Positions 14,974 through 55,066 of a DNA stretch of 64,000 nt are shown piece after piece (the stretch's first letter is position 1; the number at the start of each line of letters is the position of its first letter). The translations under genes and the position numbers were made by a program. This stretch comes from an uncultured Actinomycetota bacterium (GTDB lineage: Bacteria > Actinomycetota > Actinomycetes > Streptosporangiales > Streptosporangiaceae): assembly GCA_963777905.1 (NCBI GenBank), contig CAVZSM010000034.1, forward strand, positions 39,691-103,690, read 5' to 3'. The notes beneath the pieces were generated by a model that was given only the letters and a program-made list of their open reading frames with translations, searched no databases and was not told the origin of the DNA.

Positions 14974-15744
14974 CTATTTCCAGGGCGGCCTGCCGACCAG
15001 GCAGTACTCGTGTCCGGCGGGGTCGGTCAGCACGGTCCAGTACTGGAACGTACCGGTCACCCGCGCGCCGTGGTCGACGTGCCAGGCTACCGCCGCGTCC
15101 CGGTCCGTGCAGCCTAGATCGATGTGCCCGCGGACCCGCTGACCGGGCGCCGCCTCCTCCCGCCGCTGCAGCAGGAGCCGGACCGGCATCCCGGTGCCCG
15201 CCGGCCCGGTCAGGTAGGCGAACCCCGGCACCGGCGCGGCCTGTGGCGCCTGGCCGGTGAGCGCGGCCCAGAAGGCGCTCTCGCTGGCGAACAGCTCCGG
15301 CGGGATGTCCAGGCACAGCGTGTCCACCCGGCTGACCCCGCGGCCATCCACCGCCTGCGGGGCCGGCACAGCACGCTCTCCCTCCCAGCGGACCAGGCAG
15401 AACGTGAACCCGCCGGGACTGTCAGCGACGATCACCTCGCCCGCCTCCCGGTGCCGCACGGTCGCGCCAAGCGCCACCGCCAGGCCGGCCGCCTCATCAA
15501 GCGCCTGCAGCGCCCCGCCCGCCGTATCGACGTGCAGGTCGAGGTGGTAACCGCCGTCCCCGGCGAGCACCCGCTGCACCCGCAGATAGGCGTCGCCGGA
15601 CGGAGGCAGCATGGTGGCGAATTCGCCACCGGGCCCGCGGAACGGCGACAGCCCCGCCCCCGTCACCGCCCGCCAGAACGCGATGCCCGGGCCGAACCCC
15701 GCCGCGGGGAAATCCAGGAAGACCGTGAGCCACCGGAACGTCAC
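14974..15744 (-). CDS. VOC (glyoxalase/bleomycin-resistance-like) family protein, two-domain
   Basis: GTG start (VTFRWLTVFLDFP...) inside ORF 14974..16404. The motif FWRAVTG...YLRVQR...HLDLHV appears twice, in diverged form. Confidence 0.75.
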   Translation of the reverse strand: MTFRWLTVFLDFPAAGFGPGIAFWRAVTGAGLSPFRGPGGEFATMLPPSGDAYLRVQRVLAGDGGYHLDLHVDTAGGALQALDEAAGLAVALGATVRHREAGEVIVADSPGGFTFCLVRWEGERAVPAPQAVDGRGVSRVDTLCLDIPPELFASESAFWAALTGQAPQAAPVPGFAYLTGPAGTGMPVRLLLQRREEAAPGQRVRGHIDLGCTDRDAAVAWHVDHGARVTGTFQYWTVLTDPAGHEYCLVGRPPWK

Positions 15745-15768
15745 GCCCTCAAGGTAGTGTGCTGTGCC

Positions 15769-16557
15769 ATGAGGACGGTAGAGCCCGAGATTTTCCTGGT
15801 CGCGCGGCCCCAGATCGACTACCAGGCGATCGCCGCCTACCTGCGCGAAGTCGGCGGGGAACGCTGGCTGGAGCGGCTGGACCGCGACCAGCTCGACACC
15901 GACGCGCAGAACCTCGCCGAGTTCGCTGGCCGGATGTGCTACCGCTCCTGGGAGCCTGGCCTGAACCCGAACGTGAGCCGGATCCGCGAGGACCAGGTCC
16001 GGTACCTGGAAAACATCCTGCGCAGCGGCCACGGATCGGTCCTCGAGCACATCAACTTCACGTTCGTCCTGCACAACGTCAGTCGCGTATTCACCCATGA
16101 AACCGTCAGGCACCGCGCTGGAACGGCCATCTCGCAGGAGTCGCTGCGCTTCGTCCGCCTCGACGAGCTGCCCTTCTGGTTCCCCGACTGGGCGCAGCAA
16201 GACCCCGAGCTCATGAAGCGAGCGACCGCCCTGCTGACGGAGATGGAAGCCTTCCAGCAGTGGATGGCCGGGCACTTCCGCCTCGACGACGACGGCGTCC
16301 CCTTCCACGAGAAGAAGCACAAGACGTCGTTCATGCGCCGCTTCGCGCCGGACGGCGTGGCCACCGGGCTGGTGTGGACCGCGAACATCAGGGCGCTGCG
16401 GCACACCATCGAAATGCGCACCGACGCGGGGGCCGAGGAGGAAATCCGCCTGGTCTTCGGCAAGATCGGGGAGATCATGCGCGCCGAGGCGCCCGCGCTT
16501 TTCAGCGACTACCAGGTGACCGACGGTGCATGGGTGCCAGGCTGGCGGAAGGTCTAG
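15769..16557 (+). CDS. thyX: FAD-dependent thymidylate synthase ThyX
   Basis: ATG at 15769 inside ORF 15124..16557. EFAGRMCYRSW, GHGSVLEH, and the ThyX motif region THETVRHRAGTAISQESLRF. Confidence 0.85.
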   Translation: MRTVEPEIFLVARPQIDYQAIAAYLREVGGERWLERLDRDQLDTDAQNLAEFAGRMCYRSWEPGLNPNVSRIREDQVRYLENILRSGHGSVLEHINFTFVLHNVSRVFTHETVRHRAGTAISQESLRFVRLDELPFWFPDWAQQDPELMKRATALLTEMEAFQQWMAGHFRLDDDGVPFHEKKHKTSFMRRFAPDGVATGLVWTANIRALRHTIEMRTDAGAEEEIRLVFGKIGEIMRAEAPALFSDYQVTDGAWVPGWRKV

Positions 16558-46637: not shown

Positions 46638-48838
46638 GCGAGCCGCCGGGTGGCCAACCGCGGCTCTCCGCGGTCGCTTCCCGGACTCTCACGGCAACGT
46701 GGCTGATTACCGCCCTTGCGGCGGCGGCCGGGTGCGTCCTGACCGTGCTCGTGCGGGGGAACATAGCCAGGGGCGACCTCATTGGCAACCTGGCGGAGTC
46801 GCTGGCCAGCGTGTATTACGCCACCCTGGGGGTGCTCATCGTCCGGCGGGCCGCGAACCGGATCGGGTGGCTGATGCTCGGCGTCGGGGCACTGATCGCC
46901 CTTGAGACTGTCGCCAACGGGTACGGGGTGGTGGGCATCAGGCGTCCCGGTACGCTGCCCGCGGCCACGCTGGTCGGGTTGTTCGCCGAGTGGCTCTTCG
47001 TGCCGCTCTTCATCACCCTCATCGGCACGTTCCTGCTCTTCCCCGACGGAAGGCTCCCGTCTTCGCGGTGGCGGCCGGCGGCCTGGGTCGTCGCCGTCGT
47101 TGCCGTGCTCGGGATGACGGGGTTCGCGATCGCACCCCGGCTGGTGCGCATCCCGGCCCCCGGTGGGTCGGTGCTGTTTCCGAATCCGCTCGGCGTGGCC
47201 TCGCTCGGCCCGGTCTGGTCCGGCCTGCTCCTCGGCACGCTCACCGCGCTTAGCTTGGCGTCCCTGCCGCTGCTTGTCATAGTGGTCGCCGCGCTGGTGA
47301 CCCGTTTCCGCAGGGGCGGTCCCGATGTGCGGCAGCAGGTGAAGTGGCTGGCATTCGCGCTGGCGGTAATGCTCGTCGCCCAGCTACTCGGCCCGCTCAG
47401 GGACACGGCCACCGGCGGCCCGGCCAGCGGCCCGCTTATCATCGCCTCTGACGCGGTATCGGCGGCCGTCCCGCTTGCCGTGGTGCCTGCCGTCGTCACG
47501 CTGGCGATCCTGAAGTACCGGCTGTACCAGATCGACGTCATCATCAACAAGGCGGTGAAGTACGGCCTGCTCCTGGCGGCCCTCACCGCCGTCTACGCCG
47601 CCATCGTCGTCGGCATCGGGACGCTGGCCGGCTACGTCGGCGGCCCGCTGCTCACTGTCGCGGCGGCGGTCGCGATCGCCGTGCTGTTCCAGCCAGCCCG
47701 GGGCCGGGCCCAGCGGCTGGCCAACCGCTTCGTCTACGGGCGGCGGGCGACGCCCTACCAGGTGCTTGCTGACTTCGCCCAGGACATGGCCGGCCAGCCG
47801 GACGCCGCGGCGACGCTGGACCGGATGGCCGCGCTGCTCGCGGGGGCGACGGGCGCCACCGGGCTCACGGTCTGGATCCGCGTTGGTGAGCAGCTGCGCC
47901 CGCAGGCGACCTGGCCAGCCGGATCCGCCGCGACCGAACCCGTGCCGCTGGCTGACGGAGCGCTGCCGGACTTCGAAGCGACCCGGGCCGTCGCCGTCCG
48001 GCACGGGAACGAGCTGCTTGGCGCGCTCACGGTGGTCAAGCCGCCGGACGAGCCGGTGTCGGCTGCCGAGGAGAGCTTGCTGGCGCACCTGGCGTCACAG
48101 ACGGGCCTGGTGCTACGCAACTTGCGGCTCACCGCCGAGCTGCGGGCCACCATCGACGACCTGACGGCATCGCGTCAGCGGCTCGTGCGCGCCCAGGACG
48201 AGGAACGCCACCGGATCGAGCGGAACCTGCACGACGGCGCCCAGCAGCAGCTTGTCGCGCTCAGCATGCTGCTCAGGCTGCTGGAGGACTCCGCCGAGGA
48301 CCCCGGTGAGGTCAAGCACCTGGCGGTCCAGCTCAAGGACGGCCTGCGCGCCGCGCTCGAGGACCTGCGTGCGCTCGCCCGCGGCATCTACCCGCCGCTG
48401 CTGGCCGAGCAGGGACTGCGGGCCGCGCTGCGGGCACATGCCGACCGGGTTCCGGTCCCTGTGCTAGTCGAAGCGGACGGCATCGAGCGCTATCGCCGGG
48501 ACACGGAGGCCACCGCCTACTTCTGCATCCTCGAGGCCTTGCAGAACGTCGCCAAGTACGCGCGGGCCTCTCGGGCCTCCGTCGAGCTGGCCTGCCCAGA
48601 TGGTCATCTCGAGTTCACAGTCGCGGACGACGGAGTCGGCTTCGACGCCGTGACGGCCTCGGCCGGCACGGGCCTGCAGGGCATGGCCGACCGCGTCGCC
48701 GCGGTCGGCGGCAGTCTCCGGGTCCGCTCGGCACCGGGCACGGGCACGACCATCCACGGTCGCCTGCCGGAAGCAAGTAACAAGGCTAGCGAAAGAGCGA
48801 GCTTACCAAGAAGGAGGCCGACTGCACCGCCGACATGA
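46634..48838 (+). CDS. multi-TM sensor histidine kinase (HisKA_3-type), paralogue of 43973..45991
   Basis: Same architecture as the paralogue. H-box RIERNLHDGAQQ and an HATPase_c domain. Low-GC, atypical C-terminal tail. Confidence 0.85.
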   Translation: MSEPPGGQPRLSAVASRTLTATWLITALAAAAGCVLTVLVRGNIARGDLIGNLAESLASVYYATLGVLIVRRAANRIGWLMLGVGALIALETVANGYGVVGIRRPGTLPAATLVGLFAEWLFVPLFITLIGTFLLFPDGRLPSSRWRPAAWVVAVVAVLGMTGFAIAPRLVRIPAPGGSVLFPNPLGVASLGPVWSGLLLGTLTALSLASLPLLVIVVAALVTRFRRGGPDVRQQVKWLAFALAVMLVAQLLGPLRDTATGGPASGPLIIASDAVSAAVPLAVVPAVVTLAILKYRLYQIDVIINKAVKYGLLLAALTAVYAAIVVGIGTLAGYVGGPLLTVAAAVAIAVLFQPARGRAQRLANRFVYGRRATPYQVLADFAQDMAGQPDAAATLDRMAALLAGATGATGLTVWIRVGEQLRPQATWPAGSAATEPVPLADGALPDFEATRAVAVRHGNELLGALTVVKPPDEPVSAAEESLLAHLASQTGLVLRNLRLTAELRATIDDLTASRQRLVRAQDEERHRIERNLHDGAQQQLVALSMLLRLLEDSAEDPGEVKHLAVQLKDGLRAALEDLRALARGIYPPLLAEQGLRAALRAHADRVPVPVLVEADGIERYRRDTEATAYFCILEALQNVAKYARASRASVELACPDGHLEFTVADDGVGFDAVTASAGTGLQGMADRVAAVGGSLRVRSAPGTGTTIHGRLPEASNKASERASLPRRRPTAPPT

Positions 48839-48878
48839 TCGCGGTGTGGGACGAGAAGTCGGCGATACACGAGACGTC

Positions 48879-49448: not shown

Positions 49449-50999
49449 GTGGTGCGCGCCGTGGCTACGGGAGGACGCGTGACCGACGGCGTGATCGACA
49501 CCAGCGCGGCCAACCGCAACACCGTTGGCGCTCAGGGGACAGCGCGCTTCGCGGCGGTGTTCGCCGTCGTCACGGCCGGCATTGCGATGGTGAACCTGGA
49601 TCTGTTCATCGTCAACGTGGCGTTGCCGTCGATCGGCAGGACATTCGGCGGCGCGGACCTCGCATCGCTGTCCTGGGTGCTGAACGCCTACGCGATCGTG
49701 TTCGCGGCGCTGCTCGTCCCGGCGGGGCGGGCGGCCGACCTGATCGGCCGGCGCACCGCGTTCCTGGCCGGCGTCATCGTTTTCGCGCTCGCCTCCGCCG
49801 CATGTGCGCTGGCACCGGACGTCTGGCTGCTCGTCGTCGCGCGGATCGTCCAGGCGGCCGGCGGCGCGCTGCTGATGCCGGCCTCCCTTGGCCTGCTGCT
49901 GGCGGCGGCGCCGCCAGACAAGCGCACCGGCGCGATCCGCGGCTGGACCTCGGTCGGGGGAGCGGCGGCCGCGCTGGGCCCGGTGCTCGGCGGCGCACTG
50001 GTCGCCGCGAACTGGCGCTGGGTCTTCCTGGTGAATGTCCCGATCGCGGCCGTCGCGCTGCTGGCCAGCCTGCGCGTGCTGCCGCGCGCTGATAACAGCA
50101 AGAAGCGCGCCAGCGCCGACACAGCCGACACTGTCCGTCCGGACACCGTGGGCGCCGCGCTGTTCACGATCGCTATCGGCGCGCTCGCCCTGGCCCTGGT
50201 CAAGTCCGACGAGTGGGGCTGGACGTCGGCCCGGGTACTGGGCTCGATCGCGGTGGCCGCGGTCCTGCTCGCGCTGTTCATCCGCCGGTCCGCCCGGCAC
50301 CCCGCGCCGGTCATCGAGCCGCACCTGCTCAGGCTTCCGGCGTTCTCGACGGCGACCGCGGCGAACGTCGTGTTCGGCGCCGCGTTCGGCGCGATGCTGC
50401 TGATGGTGACCCTCTGGTGCCAGGACGTCTGGGGCTGGTCCGCGCTGCGCACGGGCCTGGGCGTCGCCCCGGGCCCGCTGCTCGTGCCGTTCTTCGCCAT
50501 AGGCGCGGGCCCGCTCGCCCGCCGCATCGGCCCCGGCCCGGTCGCCGCCCTGGGCTGCGCGATCTACGCGGCGGGCTGCGTGTTCTGGCGGTTCAACCTG
50601 TCGCTGGTACCCGACTACCCCGCGCACATGCTGCCCGGCATGCTGATGACGGGGACCGGCGTCGGCCTCGCGTTGCCCACTCTCGTGAGCGCAGGGGTCT
50701 CCGCGGTCCCGCCGCACCGCTTCGCAACCGGATCCGGCGTGGTCACGATGGCGCGTCAGGTCGGCATCGTGATCGGCGTCGCCATCCTGGTCACGGTCCT
50801 CGGTCACCCGTCAGGCGCCGCCGCGCTGGCGGCCTTCCAGCATGCGACGGTAGTGATCGCCGCCATCGCGATCACCGCCGGCCTGGCGTCGCTGCTGCTG
50901 GTCCGCAGCACCAGGGGAGCCCGCGCCAGCGCGGCGGTCACGGTCGCGGAAAACCCAGTGGCGGCCGCGGCGGAGGAACCCGTACGTTCGGAGCCGTGA
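49449..50999 (+). CDS. MFS transporter, DHA2/EmrB-like (14-TMS type)
   Basis: MVNLDLFIVNVALPSIGRTF..., RIVQAAGGALLMP. About 14 helices. Divergent from the HxlR gene. Confidence 0.85.
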   Translation: MVRAVATGGRVTDGVIDTSAANRNTVGAQGTARFAAVFAVVTAGIAMVNLDLFIVNVALPSIGRTFGGADLASLSWVLNAYAIVFAALLVPAGRAADLIGRRTAFLAGVIVFALASAACALAPDVWLLVVARIVQAAGGALLMPASLGLLLAAAPPDKRTGAIRGWTSVGGAAAALGPVLGGALVAANWRWVFLVNVPIAAVALLASLRVLPRADNSKKRASADTADTVRPDTVGAALFTIAIGALALALVKSDEWGWTSARVLGSIAVAAVLLALFIRRSARHPAPVIEPHLLRLPAFSTATAANVVFGAAFGAMLLMVTLWCQDVWGWSALRTGLGVAPGPLLVPFFAIGAGPLARRIGPGPVAALGCAIYAAGCVFWRFNLSLVPDYPAHMLPGMLMTGTGVGLALPTLVSAGVSAVPPHRFATGSGVVTMARQVGIVIGVAILVTVLGHPSGAAALAAFQHATVVIAAIAITAGLASLLLVRSTRGARASAAVTVAENPVAAAAEEPVRSEP

Positions 51000-51407
51000 C
51001 CGAGGAAAGCGCCCTGCTCGTCACCGTCCCCGCCGCCGAGCCGGCGGTGGCCAGGCACCGCTCCCGCCTCGACACGAGCGCGGCGGTCGGCGTTCCGGCG
51101 CACATTACGGTGCTGTACCCATTCCTGCCGCCGGACCTTATTGACGCGGACACCCACGCGACCCTCGCCCGCCTGTTCGCGTCCGTTCCCGGTTTCCCCT
51201 TCACACTGGACCAGACGCGCTGGTTCCCTGACCCGGTGCTGTGGCTCGGCCCGTCGGACACGGCCCGGTTCTCAGCGCTGACAGCGCTCGTCGCCGCCGC
51301 GTTCCCTTCCTGCCCGCACCGAGGTCACCCTGATGACCGGCCCGGCACCGCGCTCCGCGCCGCCCGCTGCCCGTTGGACGACGCTGGCAACGTTCTCCCT
51401 CGCCTAG
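50996..51407 (+). pseudogene. 2H-phosphoesterase (2'-5' RNA ligase-like) gene with internal deletion/frameshift
   Basis: The GTG start overlaps the MFS stop (GTGA). The first H-x-T motif is present (AHITVLYPF). The expected second H-x-T region is absent. The family-typical C-terminus (EVTLMTGPAP...WTTLATFSLA*) is in the +1 frame and ends with TAG at 51405-51407. Confidence 0.55.
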
Positions 51408-51434
51408 CCGCTTCCCGTCAGCCGCGTTGGCGCC

Positions 51435-51530
51435 CGCGTTTCCGCGGAAGCGCATTGTGCACAATTTCACAAGGCCAGGGAGGCCAGCATGGCCTTGAGC
51501 CCGGCCAGGTAACCCTGGGCGTCGGCCGCT
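51435..51530. repeat. left copy of the 96-98 bp direct repeat flanking the cysS-like gene
   Basis: About 96% identical to 52930-53027. An orphan copy of the phosphotransferase gene tail (…DAQGYLAGLKAMLASLAL*) plus its 32 downstream bp. Confidence 0.9.
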
Positions 51531-51597
51531 GATCGAGCGGCACCGTCGGCTGCGCACGGACGGTTCTCACTACAATGAGCCGTCGTCTGGAGGTCAC

Positions 51598-52878
51598 GTG
51601 CGCCTGTTTGACACGGCAACTAAGACGCTCATGCCGGTCGATCCGCCCGATGGACGCATCGGCATGTACTTCTGCGGGCCGACCGTCTACGCGCGGGCGC
51701 ACGCGGGCAACGCGCGCCCGTTCGTGCTCGGCATGTGGCTAACCCGGTGGCTCCGCGCGTCCGGCCGGACCGTGACCTTCGTGCACAACATCACCGATAT
51801 CAATGACAAGATCTACGCCGCGGCCCCGAACGCGAGCGCGGACCTCGCCAACGCGGCGGCGGAATGGTACCTGCAGGACGTCTCCGCGCTGGGACTCGGC
51901 CTGCCGGACCATATGCCCCGCGTGACAGAGCATGTCCCCCAGATCATCGAGTTCATCGCAAACCTCATCGCCAACGGCTCCGCCTACGCCGCGGACCGCG
52001 ACGTCTACTTCCGGGTCTCCGGTGACAACAGATACGGGAGCCTGTCCCGGCAGCGCACGTTGGAACCGGAGGACCGCCTGCCGAACCCGGCCAAGGAGGA
52101 CCCCCGGGACTTCGCGCTATGGAAGGCCCGCAAGGACGGGGAGGACACGTTCTGGGACTCGCCGTGGGGCAAGGGTCGGCCCGGCTGGCACATCGAGTGC
52201 ACGGTGCTGGCAGAGGCGCTGCTGGGCAAGGCCTTCGAGATCCACGGCGGCGGCCTCGACCTGGTGTTTCCCCATCACGAGAACGAGCTCGCCCAGGCAC
52301 GGGCACTGGGCGGATCCTTCGCCCGGATCTGGGCCCACAACGGAATGCTCCAGTTCACCGGCGAGAAGATGTCTAAATCGGAAGGGAACGTCACCACCAT
52401 CCGAGAGGTCCTCGACGAATGGGGCGCCGAGACATTCCTGCTTTTCCTGATGACGGGGCACTGGCGACGGCCTATCGAGTTCTCAGCCGACACGATGGCG
52501 CAGGCCGTGGCCAGAGCGCAGACCTTCCGCAACGCGTTCACGCTGACGGAGGCTCGCCCCGATGAGAGCCAGTGGGCTGAGTTCGCGGCCGCGCTCGAAG
52601 ACGACTTCGACACGCCGCGGGCGCTGGCGGTCATGCACCGATGGGCATCCGAGCGGCAGCTGCGGCTGCTGAGCCGGGGTTTGGAGATCTTCGGGCTGGC
52701 GTCGCTCGCTCATCATGCCGAAGCGCCCTCCCACGTGCGCGCGATGAGGGAGCAGCGCGACGCCGCGCGGCGCAAGCGCGACTTTGCCCTAGCCGACAAG
52801 ATCCGCGCCGACATCGAGGCCGCCGGCTGGGAAATCCGTGACGACCCGAGCGGGGCCTCGCTACTGGTTCCCCGGTGA
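51598..52878 (+). CDS. cysS: cysteine--tRNA ligase homologue (short form, HIGH motif reads HAGN)
   Basis: 426 aa, GTG start after GGAGG. GMYFCGPTVYARAHAGNAR, NITDINDKI, GRPGWHIECT, HGGGLDLVFPHHENE, KMSKS, DDFDTPRAL, and a CysRS-type C-terminal helix (KRDFALADKIRADIEAAGW). Confidence 0.85.
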   Translation: MRLFDTATKTLMPVDPPDGRIGMYFCGPTVYARAHAGNARPFVLGMWLTRWLRASGRTVTFVHNITDINDKIYAAAPNASADLANAAAEWYLQDVSALGLGLPDHMPRVTEHVPQIIEFIANLIANGSAYAADRDVYFRVSGDNRYGSLSRQRTLEPEDRLPNPAKEDPRDFALWKARKDGEDTFWDSPWGKGRPGWHIECTVLAEALLGKAFEIHGGGLDLVFPHHENELAQARALGGSFARIWAHNGMLQFTGEKMSKSEGNVTTIREVLDEWGAETFLLFLMTGHWRRPIEFSADTMAQAVARAQTFRNAFTLTEARPDESQWAEFAAALEDDFDTPRALAVMHRWASERQLRLLSRGLEIFGLASLAHHAEAPSHVRAMREQRDAARRKRDFALADKIRADIEAAGWEIRDDPSGASLLVPR

Positions 52879-52929
52879 CTCGACACCGTGGGCGTGAGCA
52901 TGTTCGCCGCCTGCCGGCGCCAAGACCAA

Positions 52930-53027
52930 CGCGTTTCCGCGGAAGCGCATTGTGCACAATTTCACAAGGCCAGGGAGGCGAGCACGGCCTTGAGCCCGGC
53001 CAGGTAACCCTGGGCATCGGCCGGCTG
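52930..53027. repeat. right copy of the direct repeat = authentic 3' end of the phosphotransferase gene
   Basis: See 51435-51530. Confidence 0.9.
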
Positions 53028-53930
53028 GCCGGCCCGGAGGTCATGGGCCGCGTAGCCGATGAGGATTCGGAGCTGACTGAGGGCAAGCCACCGTCCCCGG
53101 TCGGTCCAGAACGGCGCGGCCCCGTAGCCGGCCGCCAGGGCCGCGCGGTCTATCTCGGGCCATTCCCAGCACAGCAGGGCCAGGTCATCCAGCGGGCGGC
53201 CGCCGCACGCATCGCCGAAGTCGAGCAGCCCGGTCACGGTCACCGCTTCGTCCTCGCCCGCGACGACGAAGATATGGTCAGGGAACAGTTCGCCGTGGCA
53301 CAGCACCGCCGGGCCGTCGCCGCGCGCCGCCACCGTCTCGGGGAGCAGGCCCTCCGCCCGGCGGACCTCCGCTTGTGTCAGCAGCCCCGCCCCGGCCAGC
53401 GAGCGCAGGTTGTCGAGCCGGTTCGCCAGGTCGGCCGCCTGCAGGGCGGCATTGTCGGCGAACTCGAAGCTCCCGTCGGCGCGGCGGCGGTAGAACCCGT
53501 CGACCCGCACTGAGTGCAGCCGGGCGATCACCTGCCCGCAGGAGCGGGCCGCGGATCGGCGCTGACCGGCTGACATCCCCGGCAGCATGATGCTCAGTGG
53601 CCGGCCGGCCACCGCCGTCTGTACCATCACCGTCTTCGGGCCTGCCGGGGTTTCCGCGGCCCCGACCCACACGACCTCGGGTACCGGGACCCCGGCCTGG
53701 CGGGCCCGGGCCAGGAACCACGCCTCCTGGTCCAGGCCGTTGCTTTCGTGGGCCTCACCCCGGATCACGAGCCTGGCGCCCGAGGCGGTCACCACCTCGT
53801 GAACTTCCCGGGCGCGGCCGCTGCCCAGGTTTCTCTTGCTCGCGGCGACCCCTTCAGCGCAGGCCTGTGAGACCAGCCAGGACAGCACATCCCCGGTGAG
53901 GCGCCCGCTGTCAGGCTGGGCCGGGGCCAT
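52962..53930 (-). CDS. aminoglycoside phosphotransferase (APH)-family kinase
   Basis: ATG at 53930 inside ORF 52962..54845. VLCHGELFPDHIFV and LLDFGDA motifs. Confidence 0.8.
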   Translation of the reverse strand: MAPAQPDSGRLTGDVLSWLVSQACAEGVAASKRNLGSGRAREVHEVVTASGARLVIRGEAHESNGLDQEAWFLARARQAGVPVPEVVWVGAAETPAGPKTVMVQTAVAGRPLSIMLPGMSAGQRRSAARSCGQVIARLHSVRVDGFYRRRADGSFEFADNAALQAADLANRLDNLRSLAGAGLLTQAEVRRAEGLLPETVAARGDGPAVLCHGELFPDHIFVVAGEDEAVTVTGLLDFGDACGGRPLDDLALLCWEWPEIDRAALAAGYGAAPFWTDRGRWLALSQLRILIGYAAHDLRAGQPADAQGYLAGLKAVLASLAL

Positions 53931-53932
53931 GA

Positions 53933-55066
53933 TCAGGCCGCCAGCGGGGCGGTCCACGGGTTGTAGCTGTAGACCCAGTCGACGTCGGTCTTCTCGCGCA
54001 GCCAGGTGTTGGTCCTGGAGGTGAGCTGGACCCGGGAGGTGCGGGGCTTGCGGGTCGCCTCCAGCCGGCGGAACGCGCCGGGGATGCCGGCCGGGTCGTC
54101 GACCTCCGCTAGCAGCCGGGACAGGACGGCGGCATCCTCCAGGGCCATGGCGGCGCCCTGGGCCATGTACGGCGTCATGGGATGGCACGCGTCGCCGAGC
54201 AGGGTGACGTTGCGGTCCTGCCATCGCGGCAGCGGGTCGCGGTCGGCCAGGGCCCACTTGTGCACGTCCGGGCAGGCCGCCAGGACGTGCCGCACCTGCG
54301 GGTGGAAGCCGTCGAACGCCGCGCGCAGCGTGGGCATGTCGCCCTTGGCCGACCACGACTCGACGGTGAAGCCAGGTTCCGGCTGGCTGGTGACGAAGTA
54401 GACCTCGCTGCGGTCCGGCTTGACGTAGTAGATGACGATGTGCCGGTCCTCGCCCCACCACTTGGTGCATTCGCCGATGTCGTAGCCGCCCAGCAGCGCG
54501 GCGGGGAAGGTGGTGCGGTAGGCGATGCGCCCGGTGAAGCTGGGCTTCTCCGCGCCGAACAGCAGCTCCCTGACGAGCGAGTGGACGCCATCGGCGGCGA
54601 CCACGCCGTCGTGCACCGCGGTGCTGCCGTCGGCGAAGCCGAGCATCACCGATCCGGCCCTGTCGTCCAGCCCCGTGAGCTTGTGGTCCAGCCGGATGCG
54701 CTCGCCGGGCACGGCGCTGGCCAGGGTGGCGTGCAGGTCGCCGCGGTGCGCCAGCAGGTAGGGCGCGCCGTACTTCGCCTCCGCGGCTGGGCCGAAGATC
54801 TGGTCGTACCGCACCTCGCCGGTACGCCAGTCCCTGTTGTTCCACGACCGCGGGTAGAACGCCTCGCCGCGTATCCGCTGCTCGAGGCCCAGCCCGCGCA
54901 GCACCTGCATCGCGTTGCAGCCGACCTGGATGCCCGCGCCGAGCCTGGCGAACTTCCGCGCCTGTTCGTAGACCGTGACGTCGACGCCGGCCCGGAGCAG
55001 CGCGGCGGCCGTGGCGAGCCCGCCCATCCCAGCGCCGATCACGGCGATGGAAAGCCTGCCACCCAT
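53933..55066 (-). CDS. FAD-dependent aromatic-ring monooxygenase (salicylate / 6-hydroxynicotinate hydroxylase-like)
   Basis: VIGAGMGGLATA, ADGVHSLVR, LLGDACHPMTPYMAQGAAMALEDA. Confidence 0.85.
   Translation of the reverse strand: MGGRLSIAVIGAGMGGLATAAALLRAGVDVTVYEQARKFARLGAGIQVGCNAMQVLRGLGLEQRIRGEAFYPRSWNNRDWRTGEVRYDQIFGPAAEAKYGAPYLLAHRGDLHATLASAVPGERIRLDHKLTGLDDRAGSVMLGFADGSTAVHDGVVAADGVHSLVRELLFGAEKPSFTGRIAYRTTFPAALLGGYDIGECTKWWGEDRHIVIYYVKPDRSEVYFVTSQPEPGFTVESWSAKGDMPTLRAAFDGFHPQVRHVLAACPDVHKWALADRDPLPRWQDRNVTLLGDACHPMTPYMAQGAAMALEDAAVLSRLLAEVDDPAGIPGAFRRLEATRKPRTSRVQLTSRTNTWLREKTDVDWVYSYNPWTAPLAA

Follow-up and report, generated by a model that had tools for sequence, protein, structure and literature searches.

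A probably acquired second cysteinyl-tRNA synthetase gene between 94-bp direct repeats in an uncultured Trebonia population

The cysS locus and its repeats

The stretch of DNA considered here (the window, 64 kb in all; GenBank assembly GCA_963777905.1, contig CAVZSM010000034.1, positions 39,691 to 103,690) comes from an uncultured soil actinomycete of the order Streptosporangiales, and eight of its proteins cluster at 90% identity or more with proteins named Trebonia sp. from NCBI metagenome-assembled genomes (MAGs). Between two convergent genes, for a 2H-phosphoesterase and an APH-family phosphotransferase, lies a cysS-like gene for a cysteinyl-tRNA synthetase (CysRS), bounded on both sides by a copy of the phosphotransferase 3' end. 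The arrangement is probably the outcome of horizontal acquisition of a dispensable, functional second CysRS, inserted once by illegitimate recombination with a 94-bp target duplication. The features of the locus are listed below; HxGN denotes the form that the HIGH signature takes in this protein and its relatives, and “filled” sites are those that carry the gene.

50996..51407, + strand: 2H-phosphoesterase (2_5_RNA_ligase2) gene, left border of the target; Pfam PF13563, N-terminal part only
51435..51528, no strand assigned: left, orphan copy of the target; APH 3' end plus 32 nt of intergenic DNA
51529..51597, + strand: 5' part of the insert; -10-like TACAAT at 51571-51576, ribosome-binding site (RBS) GGAGG at 51589-51593
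51598..52878, + strand: cysS-like gene, 426 aa, short HxGN lineage; TIGR00435, PF01406
52879..52929, + strand: 3' part of the insert, 51 nt; seen only in Trebonia filled-site loci
52930..53023, no strand assigned: right copy of the target; functional APH 3' end plus the 32-nt palindromic downstream region
52962..53933, - strand: APH-family phosphotransferase gene, right border of the target; PF01636, E=6e-28

The direct repeat (51435-51528 and 52930-53023, spacing 1495) runs for 94 nt without a gap and is identical at 91 of the 94 positions, with substitutions at repeat positions 51, 56 and 87. The preliminary description of the locus had recognized it correctly and made it 96-98 bp long, a length that can be reached only with a 1-nt indel plus CTG at the right end. 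The initial 50 nt match exactly and occur just twice in the window (expected 0, 100 shuffles); with only two copies of the repeat there, a dispersed element (repetitive extragenic palindrome or miniature inverted-repeat transposable element) is ruled out as the source of the 94 nt.

The right copy is, as first proposed, the 3' end of the phosphotransferase gene, comprising 32 nt downstream of it, its stop codon at 52962-52964 (TCA on the + strand) and its last 19.7 codons rather than about 22. The left copy is likewise the orphan tail it had been taken for, behind a decayed 2H gene, starting 27 nt and not 28 bp past the TAG (51405-51407) of the latter. The perfect palindromes TTCCGCGGAA (51440) and ATTGTGCACAAT (51454) span 51440-51465 and recur at 52935-52960; both fall inside the 32 nt downstream of the APH stop. 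Conceivable functions are those of a bidirectional terminator or of a site for protein binding, though the DNA fold z-score is only -1.4 to -2.3.

The encoded protein

Identification of the 426-aa product as a CysRS homologue is upheld by profile searches: it scores 369.1 bits against TIGR00435 (the NCBIfam cysS equivalog, cutoff 340) over residues 1-422 of 426, and 329.7 bits against PF01406 (E=2e-98). Its motifs are CGPTVY, HAGN, HIEC, HGGGLDLVFPHHENE and KMSKS; the strict HIGH sequence is not present, its position being occupied by HAGN (H-x-G-N). The zinc site and KMSKS are intact, as had been stated: the Zn/Cys ligand motifs CGPTVY, HIEC and FPHHENE align column for column with the CysRS structures of E. 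coli (1li5) and Coxiella (3tqo), the zinc- and cysteine-binding residues of the E. coli enzyme being C28, C209, H234 and E238. The alignment to both structures is full-length, and the C-terminal anticodon-binding domain is present, aligning to residue 421 (458 in 3tqo) and to residue 457 of the Nonomuraea enzyme, with the motif RKRDFALADKIR…GW.I.D included.

The suggestion that the protein might be an MshC-like ligase does not stand, the MshC model TIGR03447 giving 258.5 bits against a cutoff of 485.1 and the anticodon-binding C-terminus being retained. Pairwise dN/dS against 12 relatives is 0.14-0.25, and within the 64 kb there is no second cysS or mshC. Judged by these models and alignments, the window gene is predicted to encode a complete class I cysteinyl-tRNA synthetase. 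Asn at the fourth position of the HIGH motif should be compatible with class I catalysis, because human MetRS, an active enzyme, naturally uses HLGN (PMC8216282); a literature search for HxGN in CysRS found nothing, the MetRS HLGN alone coming up.

A short HxGN lineage

HAGN and a shortening of about 40 aa had at first been read as marks of an altered enzyme. The nearest database homologues argue otherwise: 117 of 120 have HxGN (HVGN 59, HIGN 33, HAGN 24, HFGN 1), and the full-length members among them measure 421-430 aa. In a search of 185,579 GTDB species representatives, with lineage labels taken from the best 80 relatives, these 80 were 59-65% identical to the window protein and labelled Gaiellaceae, Gaiellales, Thermoleophilia or, more broadly, Actinomycetota or Actinomycetes, the broadly labelled bins having the same synteny as the Gaiellales/Thermoleophilia loci. 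A GluRS-like gene lies upstream of cysS in all 76 testable loci and a SpoU/rlmB methyltransferase gene downstream in all 80, and this fixed order of GluRS-like gene, cysS and rlmB points to a housekeeping arrangement in Gaiellales/Thermoleophilia, of which the short HxGN form is evidently the housekeeping CysRS. Since HxGN and short length are shared with these syntenic housekeeping genes, HAGN and the 426-aa length are lineage traits and not peculiarities of the window gene.

The upstream GluRS-like gene (L011-L090, about 1 kb before cysS; for example L033:8997-9995) encodes 332-338 aa with an HVGN-type motif (…APSPTGTLHVGNA…) and matches the anticodon domain only weakly; candidate identities are a minimal GluRS and a Glu-Q-RS-like enzyme.

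Horizontal acquisition

The window protein is 64% identical to Thermoleophilia CysRS, as against 40-42% to canonical actinomycete CysRS. A neighbor-joining (NJ) tree built on 425 columns with 100 bootstraps places every HxGN sequence in a single clade (100%), at a long distance from the canonical CysRS of actinomycetes. Within that clade the window gene belongs to a soil-actinomycete subclade (100%) with metagenomic relatives at 79-98% identity; the nearest sister of this subclade is a metagenomic HVGN group (96%), and the Thermoleophilia set joins next (74%).

Relatives at 82-90% identity sit in unrelated contexts (after a DinB/MST gene; between a Na+/H+ exchanger gene and a TetR or glyoxalase gene; beside a hydrolase-GerE pair), homology between contexts is restricted to the open reading frame (ORF) and 10-60 nt upstream, and no partner gene is consistent across the contexts of HxGN cysS. 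One such context, L094, is Frankiaceae/Mycobacteriales-like by its HelY protein, which is 84% identical to that of a Frankiaceae MAG; in another (L091:7400-7981) the HxGN cysS begins 20 nt after the DinB/MST gene (mycothiol S-transferase family, PF04978).

In composition the window gene departs from its surroundings (GC 0.675 vs 0.715±0.014 for window genes; GC at third codon positions 0.869 vs 0.922±0.031), and its values match those of the flanks in L092 and L094. No copy more than 65% identical occurs in the 185,579 GTDB species representatives. Taken as a comparison of sequences and contexts, these observations indicate that a subclade of the HxGN lineage has spread horizontally among acid-soil Actinomycetes. 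That the gene was acquired, as the preliminary description proposed, is borne out by its foreign phylogeny and composition and by its variable presence among strains, two contigs (L096, L189) having an empty site and one (L095) other cargo.

Allelic states of the site

The empty site that had been predicted, with the 2H gene convergent with the phosphotransferase gene, was found in two ENA contigs, L096 and L189 (ERZ25039562 contig_72633 and ERZ25039534 contig_53438). Both have the 2H tail, the spacer, one 94-nt copy and the rest of APH, without cysS, and across the right flank (the APH, FAD monooxygenase and enoyl-CoA hydratase genes) they are 96.5-99.7% identical to the window. Their single copy identifies 51529-52929 (1401 bp) as an insertion with a 94-bp target duplication, in agreement with the original view of the gene as inserted. 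Compared with the single copy in L096, the right copy in the window differs at 2 of 94 positions and the left copy at 5 of 94. The left copy in the window has substitutions of its own (GAGCAC>CAGCAT) that are not found in the left copies of L180-L184, as would be expected of a non-coding relic.

The filled site is present in at least 12 other assemblies of the population (among NCBI assemblies, GCA_049794275.1, GCA_049676745.1, GCA_049798275.1 and GCA_049676095.1; in ENA, ERZ25039522 contig_6838). The two-copy arrangement was recovered full-length in nine, from long and short reads (L100 and L180-L187, of which L180-L183 are contigs of up to 453 kb and L184-L187 four NCBI Trebonia MAGs), and its recurrence across both kinds of assembly rejects an assembly artefact. 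L001 and L098 have the same left copy, left junction and gene and stop at or just past the right end of the insert, and nine Logan contigs break precisely 30 nt (k-1) into the right copy. The left junction is identical in L001, L098, L100 and L180-L187; in the nine contigs that reach the right copy, left and right copies mostly differ at position 87 alone; and in most filled-site assemblies the 2H gene is intact. Identity of cysS to the window gene is 98.8% where the flanks are 97-99.6% identical and about 97% where they are 93-97%, a parallel that fits one old insertion which has since diverged along with its host.

A third allele, in L095 (8970-10515, equivalent to window 51408-52967), has 1.55 kb of other cargo: an NAD-dependent epimerase/dehydratase gene (PF01370) and a remnant of an IS630-like transposase. 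Its flanks are 93.5-97% identical to the window, APH lacks its last three codons and the entire palindromic region is replaced; the presence of different cargo marks the insertion site as a hotspot. The right junction also exists in variants, corresponding to window 52879-52935. In L100 (1490-1650) the cysS stop plus 1 nt is followed by a copy of the 2H tail, the spacer and the 94 nt, so that the 51-nt insert tail is missing and the duplication grows to about 148 nt; in L098 (7224-7292) the 51-nt tail passes into unrelated AGTGGGGCGATGGCAAAC at the contig end. All three versions of the junction adjoin the palindromes TTCCGCGGAA and ATTGTGCACAAT, and the variants in L100 and L098 suggest repeated breakage and repair at the same point.

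The alleles themselves also pass between strains by homologous recombination of the flanks: compared with the empty-site contigs the flanks form a mosaic, with 83% identity to the left of the site and 98% to its right. The left flank of those contigs is both divergent (82-83% identity) and decayed, which points to allelic replacement by recombination around the site.

Insertion mechanism

Between the repeats there is a single ORF, the CysRS gene, with no transposase or integrase, and the ends of the insert are not inverted repeats. No tRNA target was found anywhere in the window (ARAGORN), and 50900-53200 has no structured or regulatory RNA with an Rfam match at E<=1. A transposon, insertion sequence, integron cassette or other integrative element was rejected on these grounds, there being no transposase, integrase, terminal inverted repeat or attC, or tRNA or att target, and the duplication being 94 bp rather than short. 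A mobile cassette with hallmark flanking repeats was rejected as well, the nine other contexts of cysS homologues having no such repeats; no phage relative of the gene was found in IMG/VR; and a plasmid vector finds no support in the plasmid collection, whose best matches are canonical cysS genes at 41% identity or less.

The 69-nt 5' end of the insert (51529..51597) is missing from the empty-site contigs. About 60 nt upstream of cysS, including TA[C/A/G]AAT, are conserved with L101-L104 in unrelated contexts. Both the TACAAT box and the GGAGG RBS noted previously are present; a sigma-70 consensus promoter is not, a scan having found no full -35/-10 match upstream of cysS, and the -10 box rests on conservation only. 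Among the contexts fetched, none offers a donor for the 69-nt or the 51-nt end, which occur in Trebonia filled sites only.

With neither transposase, integrase, terminal inverted repeats nor tRNA target, illegitimate recombination is the best explanation that we can infer, and an insert free of such machinery, whose other copies are free of flanking repeats, looks like a one-off illegitimate event and not a mobile element. The duplicated 94 bp consist of the last ~20 APH codons and the palindromic region 3' of them, and the right junction coincides exactly with the base of TTCCGCGGAA and ATTGTGCACAAT, where the two genes have their convergent terminators. In an ancestor of the Trebonia population the site may have been opened by a break, or by stalled replication, at this palindromic terminator; 1401 bp of foreign DNA, equipped with a complete cysS gene, its RBS and a promoter-like element, would then have been inserted once between the convergent 2H and APH genes. 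Two routes can be envisaged: fill-in of a staggered break, with the foreign DNA captured by end joining, or template switching during replication, with a return to a point 94 nt back. Owing to the duplication each convergent gene kept its own 3' end; both would have kept their hairpins too, with cysS depending on the promoter brought along. The 94-bp repeats would then permit precise loss by recombination between them, and the excised 1495-bp circle might re-integrate.

The principal competitor for the origin of this structure, and an unlikely one, is Campbell-type integration, in which a circle already carrying the 94-nt APH 3' end entered by a single homologous crossover. The junctions of such a circle would read …CCAAGACCAA joined to CGCGTTTCC…GGCCG joined to CTGATCG. 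Direct repeats that exactly flank the insert and equal host sequence are what it predicts, although they are equally expected from target duplication by break repair or template switching; near identity of the copies in most strains would also fit, and the structure might, in principle, leave as a 1495-bp circle and insert again in strains whose site is empty. However, replicon, integrase and attachment features are all missing from the insert, the collections searched gave neither a plasmid nor a viral relative, flanking repeats are not seen in other contexts of the gene, and 94 nt of Trebonia APH would be out of place on a foreign circle unless that circle came from a filled site. Since such a circle needs a site that is already filled, the Campbell route explains spread and not origin; it would account for re-integration of the 1495-bp circle better than for the first event.

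Role of the acquired gene

Taken together, the gene is likely to be a horizontally acquired, dispensable and functional second CysRS, and the protein most likely a normal Cys-tRNA(Cys) synthetase whose gene is transcribed from a promoter of its own. Gene dosage and tolerance to stress or inhibitors are candidate benefits, and inhibitor resistance in an otherwise normal CysRS is possible.

Several points weigh against this reading. As regards the insertion, the signature of a mechanism is limited to a possible 3-nt CTG microhomology, and the empty-site contigs need not show the ancestral state, since precise deletion could have produced them secondarily. As regards the source, the absence of a donor context for the insert ends makes origin and direction of transfer less certain, and the tree puts the actinomycete subclade beside the Thermoleophilia sampled, as their sister (74%), and not among them. 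As regards the role, the promoter lacks support from the consensus scan; no canonical cysS of the same Trebonia genome came to light in the regions covered (the 64-kb window and 13-kb loci); and the gene is in most sampled strains of the population and under purifying selection, so that it could be more than a dispensable extra.

These last points lead to orthologous displacement, which we consider improbable: in these Trebonia strains the canonical cysS would have given way to the HxGN gene, which would now encode their sole and essential CysRS. Passing the cysS equivalog cutoff, purifying selection, presence in at least 12 assemblies, the housekeeping role of the same lineage in Thermoleophilia, and the failure to see a canonical cysS in the roughly 64 kb inspected are all in keeping with this. 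They are outweighed by L096 and L189, which belong to the same population, with 96.5-99.7% identity in the right flank, and have no such gene at the site, and by a third contig (L095) that holds other cargo there. In addition, the absence of any close copy (>65%) from the GTDB representatives means that other Treboniaceae must use another CysRS, and the rlmB housekeeping synteny is missing here, Nonomuraea retaining a canonical cysS-rlmB pair. Strain-variable presence and absence from the GTDB representatives make a sole-CysRS role unlikely.

Comparably doubtful is a more elaborate version of acquisition, in which the HxGN subclade would be a self-contained promoter-plus-gene unit spreading through Actinomycetes of acid soils (Trebonia, Frankiaceae-like lineages) by virtue of a selectable property not shared by the canonical enzyme, with the Trebonia repeats making of it a recombinase-free 1.5-kb minicircle able to excise and re-integrate. 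The property might be tolerance of zinc limitation, of acid or oxidative stress, or of some naturally occurring CysRS inhibitor.

Least probable of all is a neofunctionalised CysRS-like ligase (MshC-like, engaged in tRNA-dependent secondary chemistry, or a dedicated inhibitor-resistance enzyme): the non-canonical HIGH motif, a score barely over the NCBIfam cutoff (369 vs 340) and a horizontal spread in soil actinomycetes resembling that of resistance-type aminoacyl-tRNA synthetase (aaRS) copies (PMC9437257) might hint at it, but HxGN and a length of 421-430 aa are universal in the lineage, syntenic housekeeping members included, the MshC model failed with the anticodon-binding C-terminus kept, no biosynthetic or tRNA genes lie near the gene, which was inserted between unrelated ones, and no partner gene is consistent across contexts.

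Neighbouring genes

The 2H gene of the window is a pseudogene: collinear BLAST shows a 122-bp internal deletion at about 51317 that takes out the second HxT motif. The intact orthologue has 177 aa with a second HLTI motif (L095 and seven of L180-L187; not called in L184). Decay has been independent between strains, the 122-bp deletion being found in the window and L001 and a deletion of about 315 bp, the equivalent of window 51037-51352, in the empty-site contigs. The MFS gene of the latter is degraded too, and only 82-83% identical to the window.

The APH-family protein shares 94% identity with one from Trebonia sp. at NCBI, and its C-terminus was not altered by the insertion, the same 3' end occurring in the empty-site contigs. 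The gene is intact in ENA contigs L181-L183 (322 aa) and, as called, in the NCBI MAG contigs L184-L187 (331 aa); it is split or extended by frameshifts in L180:7365-8332, L095:8001-8970 and L189:5660-7077, which in these ENA contigs may reflect indel errors of sequencing or assembly and not genuine pseudogenes.

Elsewhere in the window, a 105-bp segment between the end of a histidine-kinase gene and an HxlR gene (48771-48875) is missing from the 99.9%-identical contig L001. A ThyX ORF of 477 aa (15124-16557) has its Thy1 domain confined to residues 259-458, which implies an N-terminal extension of about 250 aa or an over-long ORF call.

Comparison with known systems

The window CysRS is most like the Gaiellales/Thermoleophilia enzymes, to which it is 59-65% identical over its full length and with which it shares a length of 421-430 aa, HxGN, KMSKS, the zinc ligands and the C-terminal anticodon domain. 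It reads HAGN where their housekeeping CysRS read HVGN or HIGN, and, unlike their genes, which have a fixed GluRS-like–cysS–rlmB–sigma context, the window gene is isolated, strain-variable and in an Actinomycetes genome. With the canonical actinomycete CysRS, as in Nonomuraea gerenzanensis (463 aa, HIGH, followed by rlmB), it has in common the fold, the catalytic and zinc residues, KMSKS, the C-terminal domain and the NCBIfam family; the two are only 40-42% identical, a long branch separates them in the NJ tree, and the Nonomuraea protein is longer by about 37 aa, mainly a helical linker of about 24 aa before the C-terminal domain.

MshC, the Cys:GlcN-Ins ligase of mycothiol synthesis, also has a CysRS-derived catalytic domain, and residues 1-352 of the window protein align to the MshC structures 3c8z and 8hfm. 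MshC lacks the anticodon-binding C-terminus, which the window protein keeps. The other CysRS paralogue, CysRS* of Desulfobacterales, charges SelC* for Cys at UGA (Mukai 2017, cited in PMC9437257). It resembles the window protein in being a non-housekeeping CysRS paralogue; as characterized in that citation it is without an anticodon-binding domain and linked to SelB*/SelC*, whereas the window protein has the domain and the window no tRNA gene. The presence of this domain, together with the failed MshC cutoff, led to rejection of an identity as either MshC or CysRS*.

Horizontally acquired auxiliary aaRS are known, among them IleRS2 (mupirocin), TrpRS1 (indolmycin) and the stress-specific TyrZ (PMC9437257). 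Like these, the window gene is a phylogenetically foreign, full-length synthetase gene with its own expression signals and a patchy distribution among strains; unlike them, it has no linked inhibitor, biosynthetic cluster or regulator. The table of that review gives no auxiliary full-length CysRS, the CysRS paralogues in it being MshC and CysRS* only (PMC9437257). A precedent for extra cysS copies on accessory replicons of actinomycetes is the canonical-type gene (465 aa, HIGH) on the 361-kb linear plasmid unnamed1 of Streptomyces xanthii (L191, NZ_CP061282.1:304200-305597).

Set against these systems, the locus is a clean natural example of gene capture, and a fairly ordinary acquisition that will be no surprise to specialists. 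Filled, empty and alternative-cargo alleles in one natural population document the entry of an aaRS gene without mobile-element machinery, the entry point being a palindromic convergent-terminator region where an unusually long target duplication of 94 bp preserves the 3' ends of both neighbours. A whole CysRS lineage with H-x-G-N in place of HIGH and about 35 residues fewer also matters for annotation and for tests of function based on HIGH. If a stress or inhibitor phenotype proved true, this would be the first characterised auxiliary full-length CysRS.

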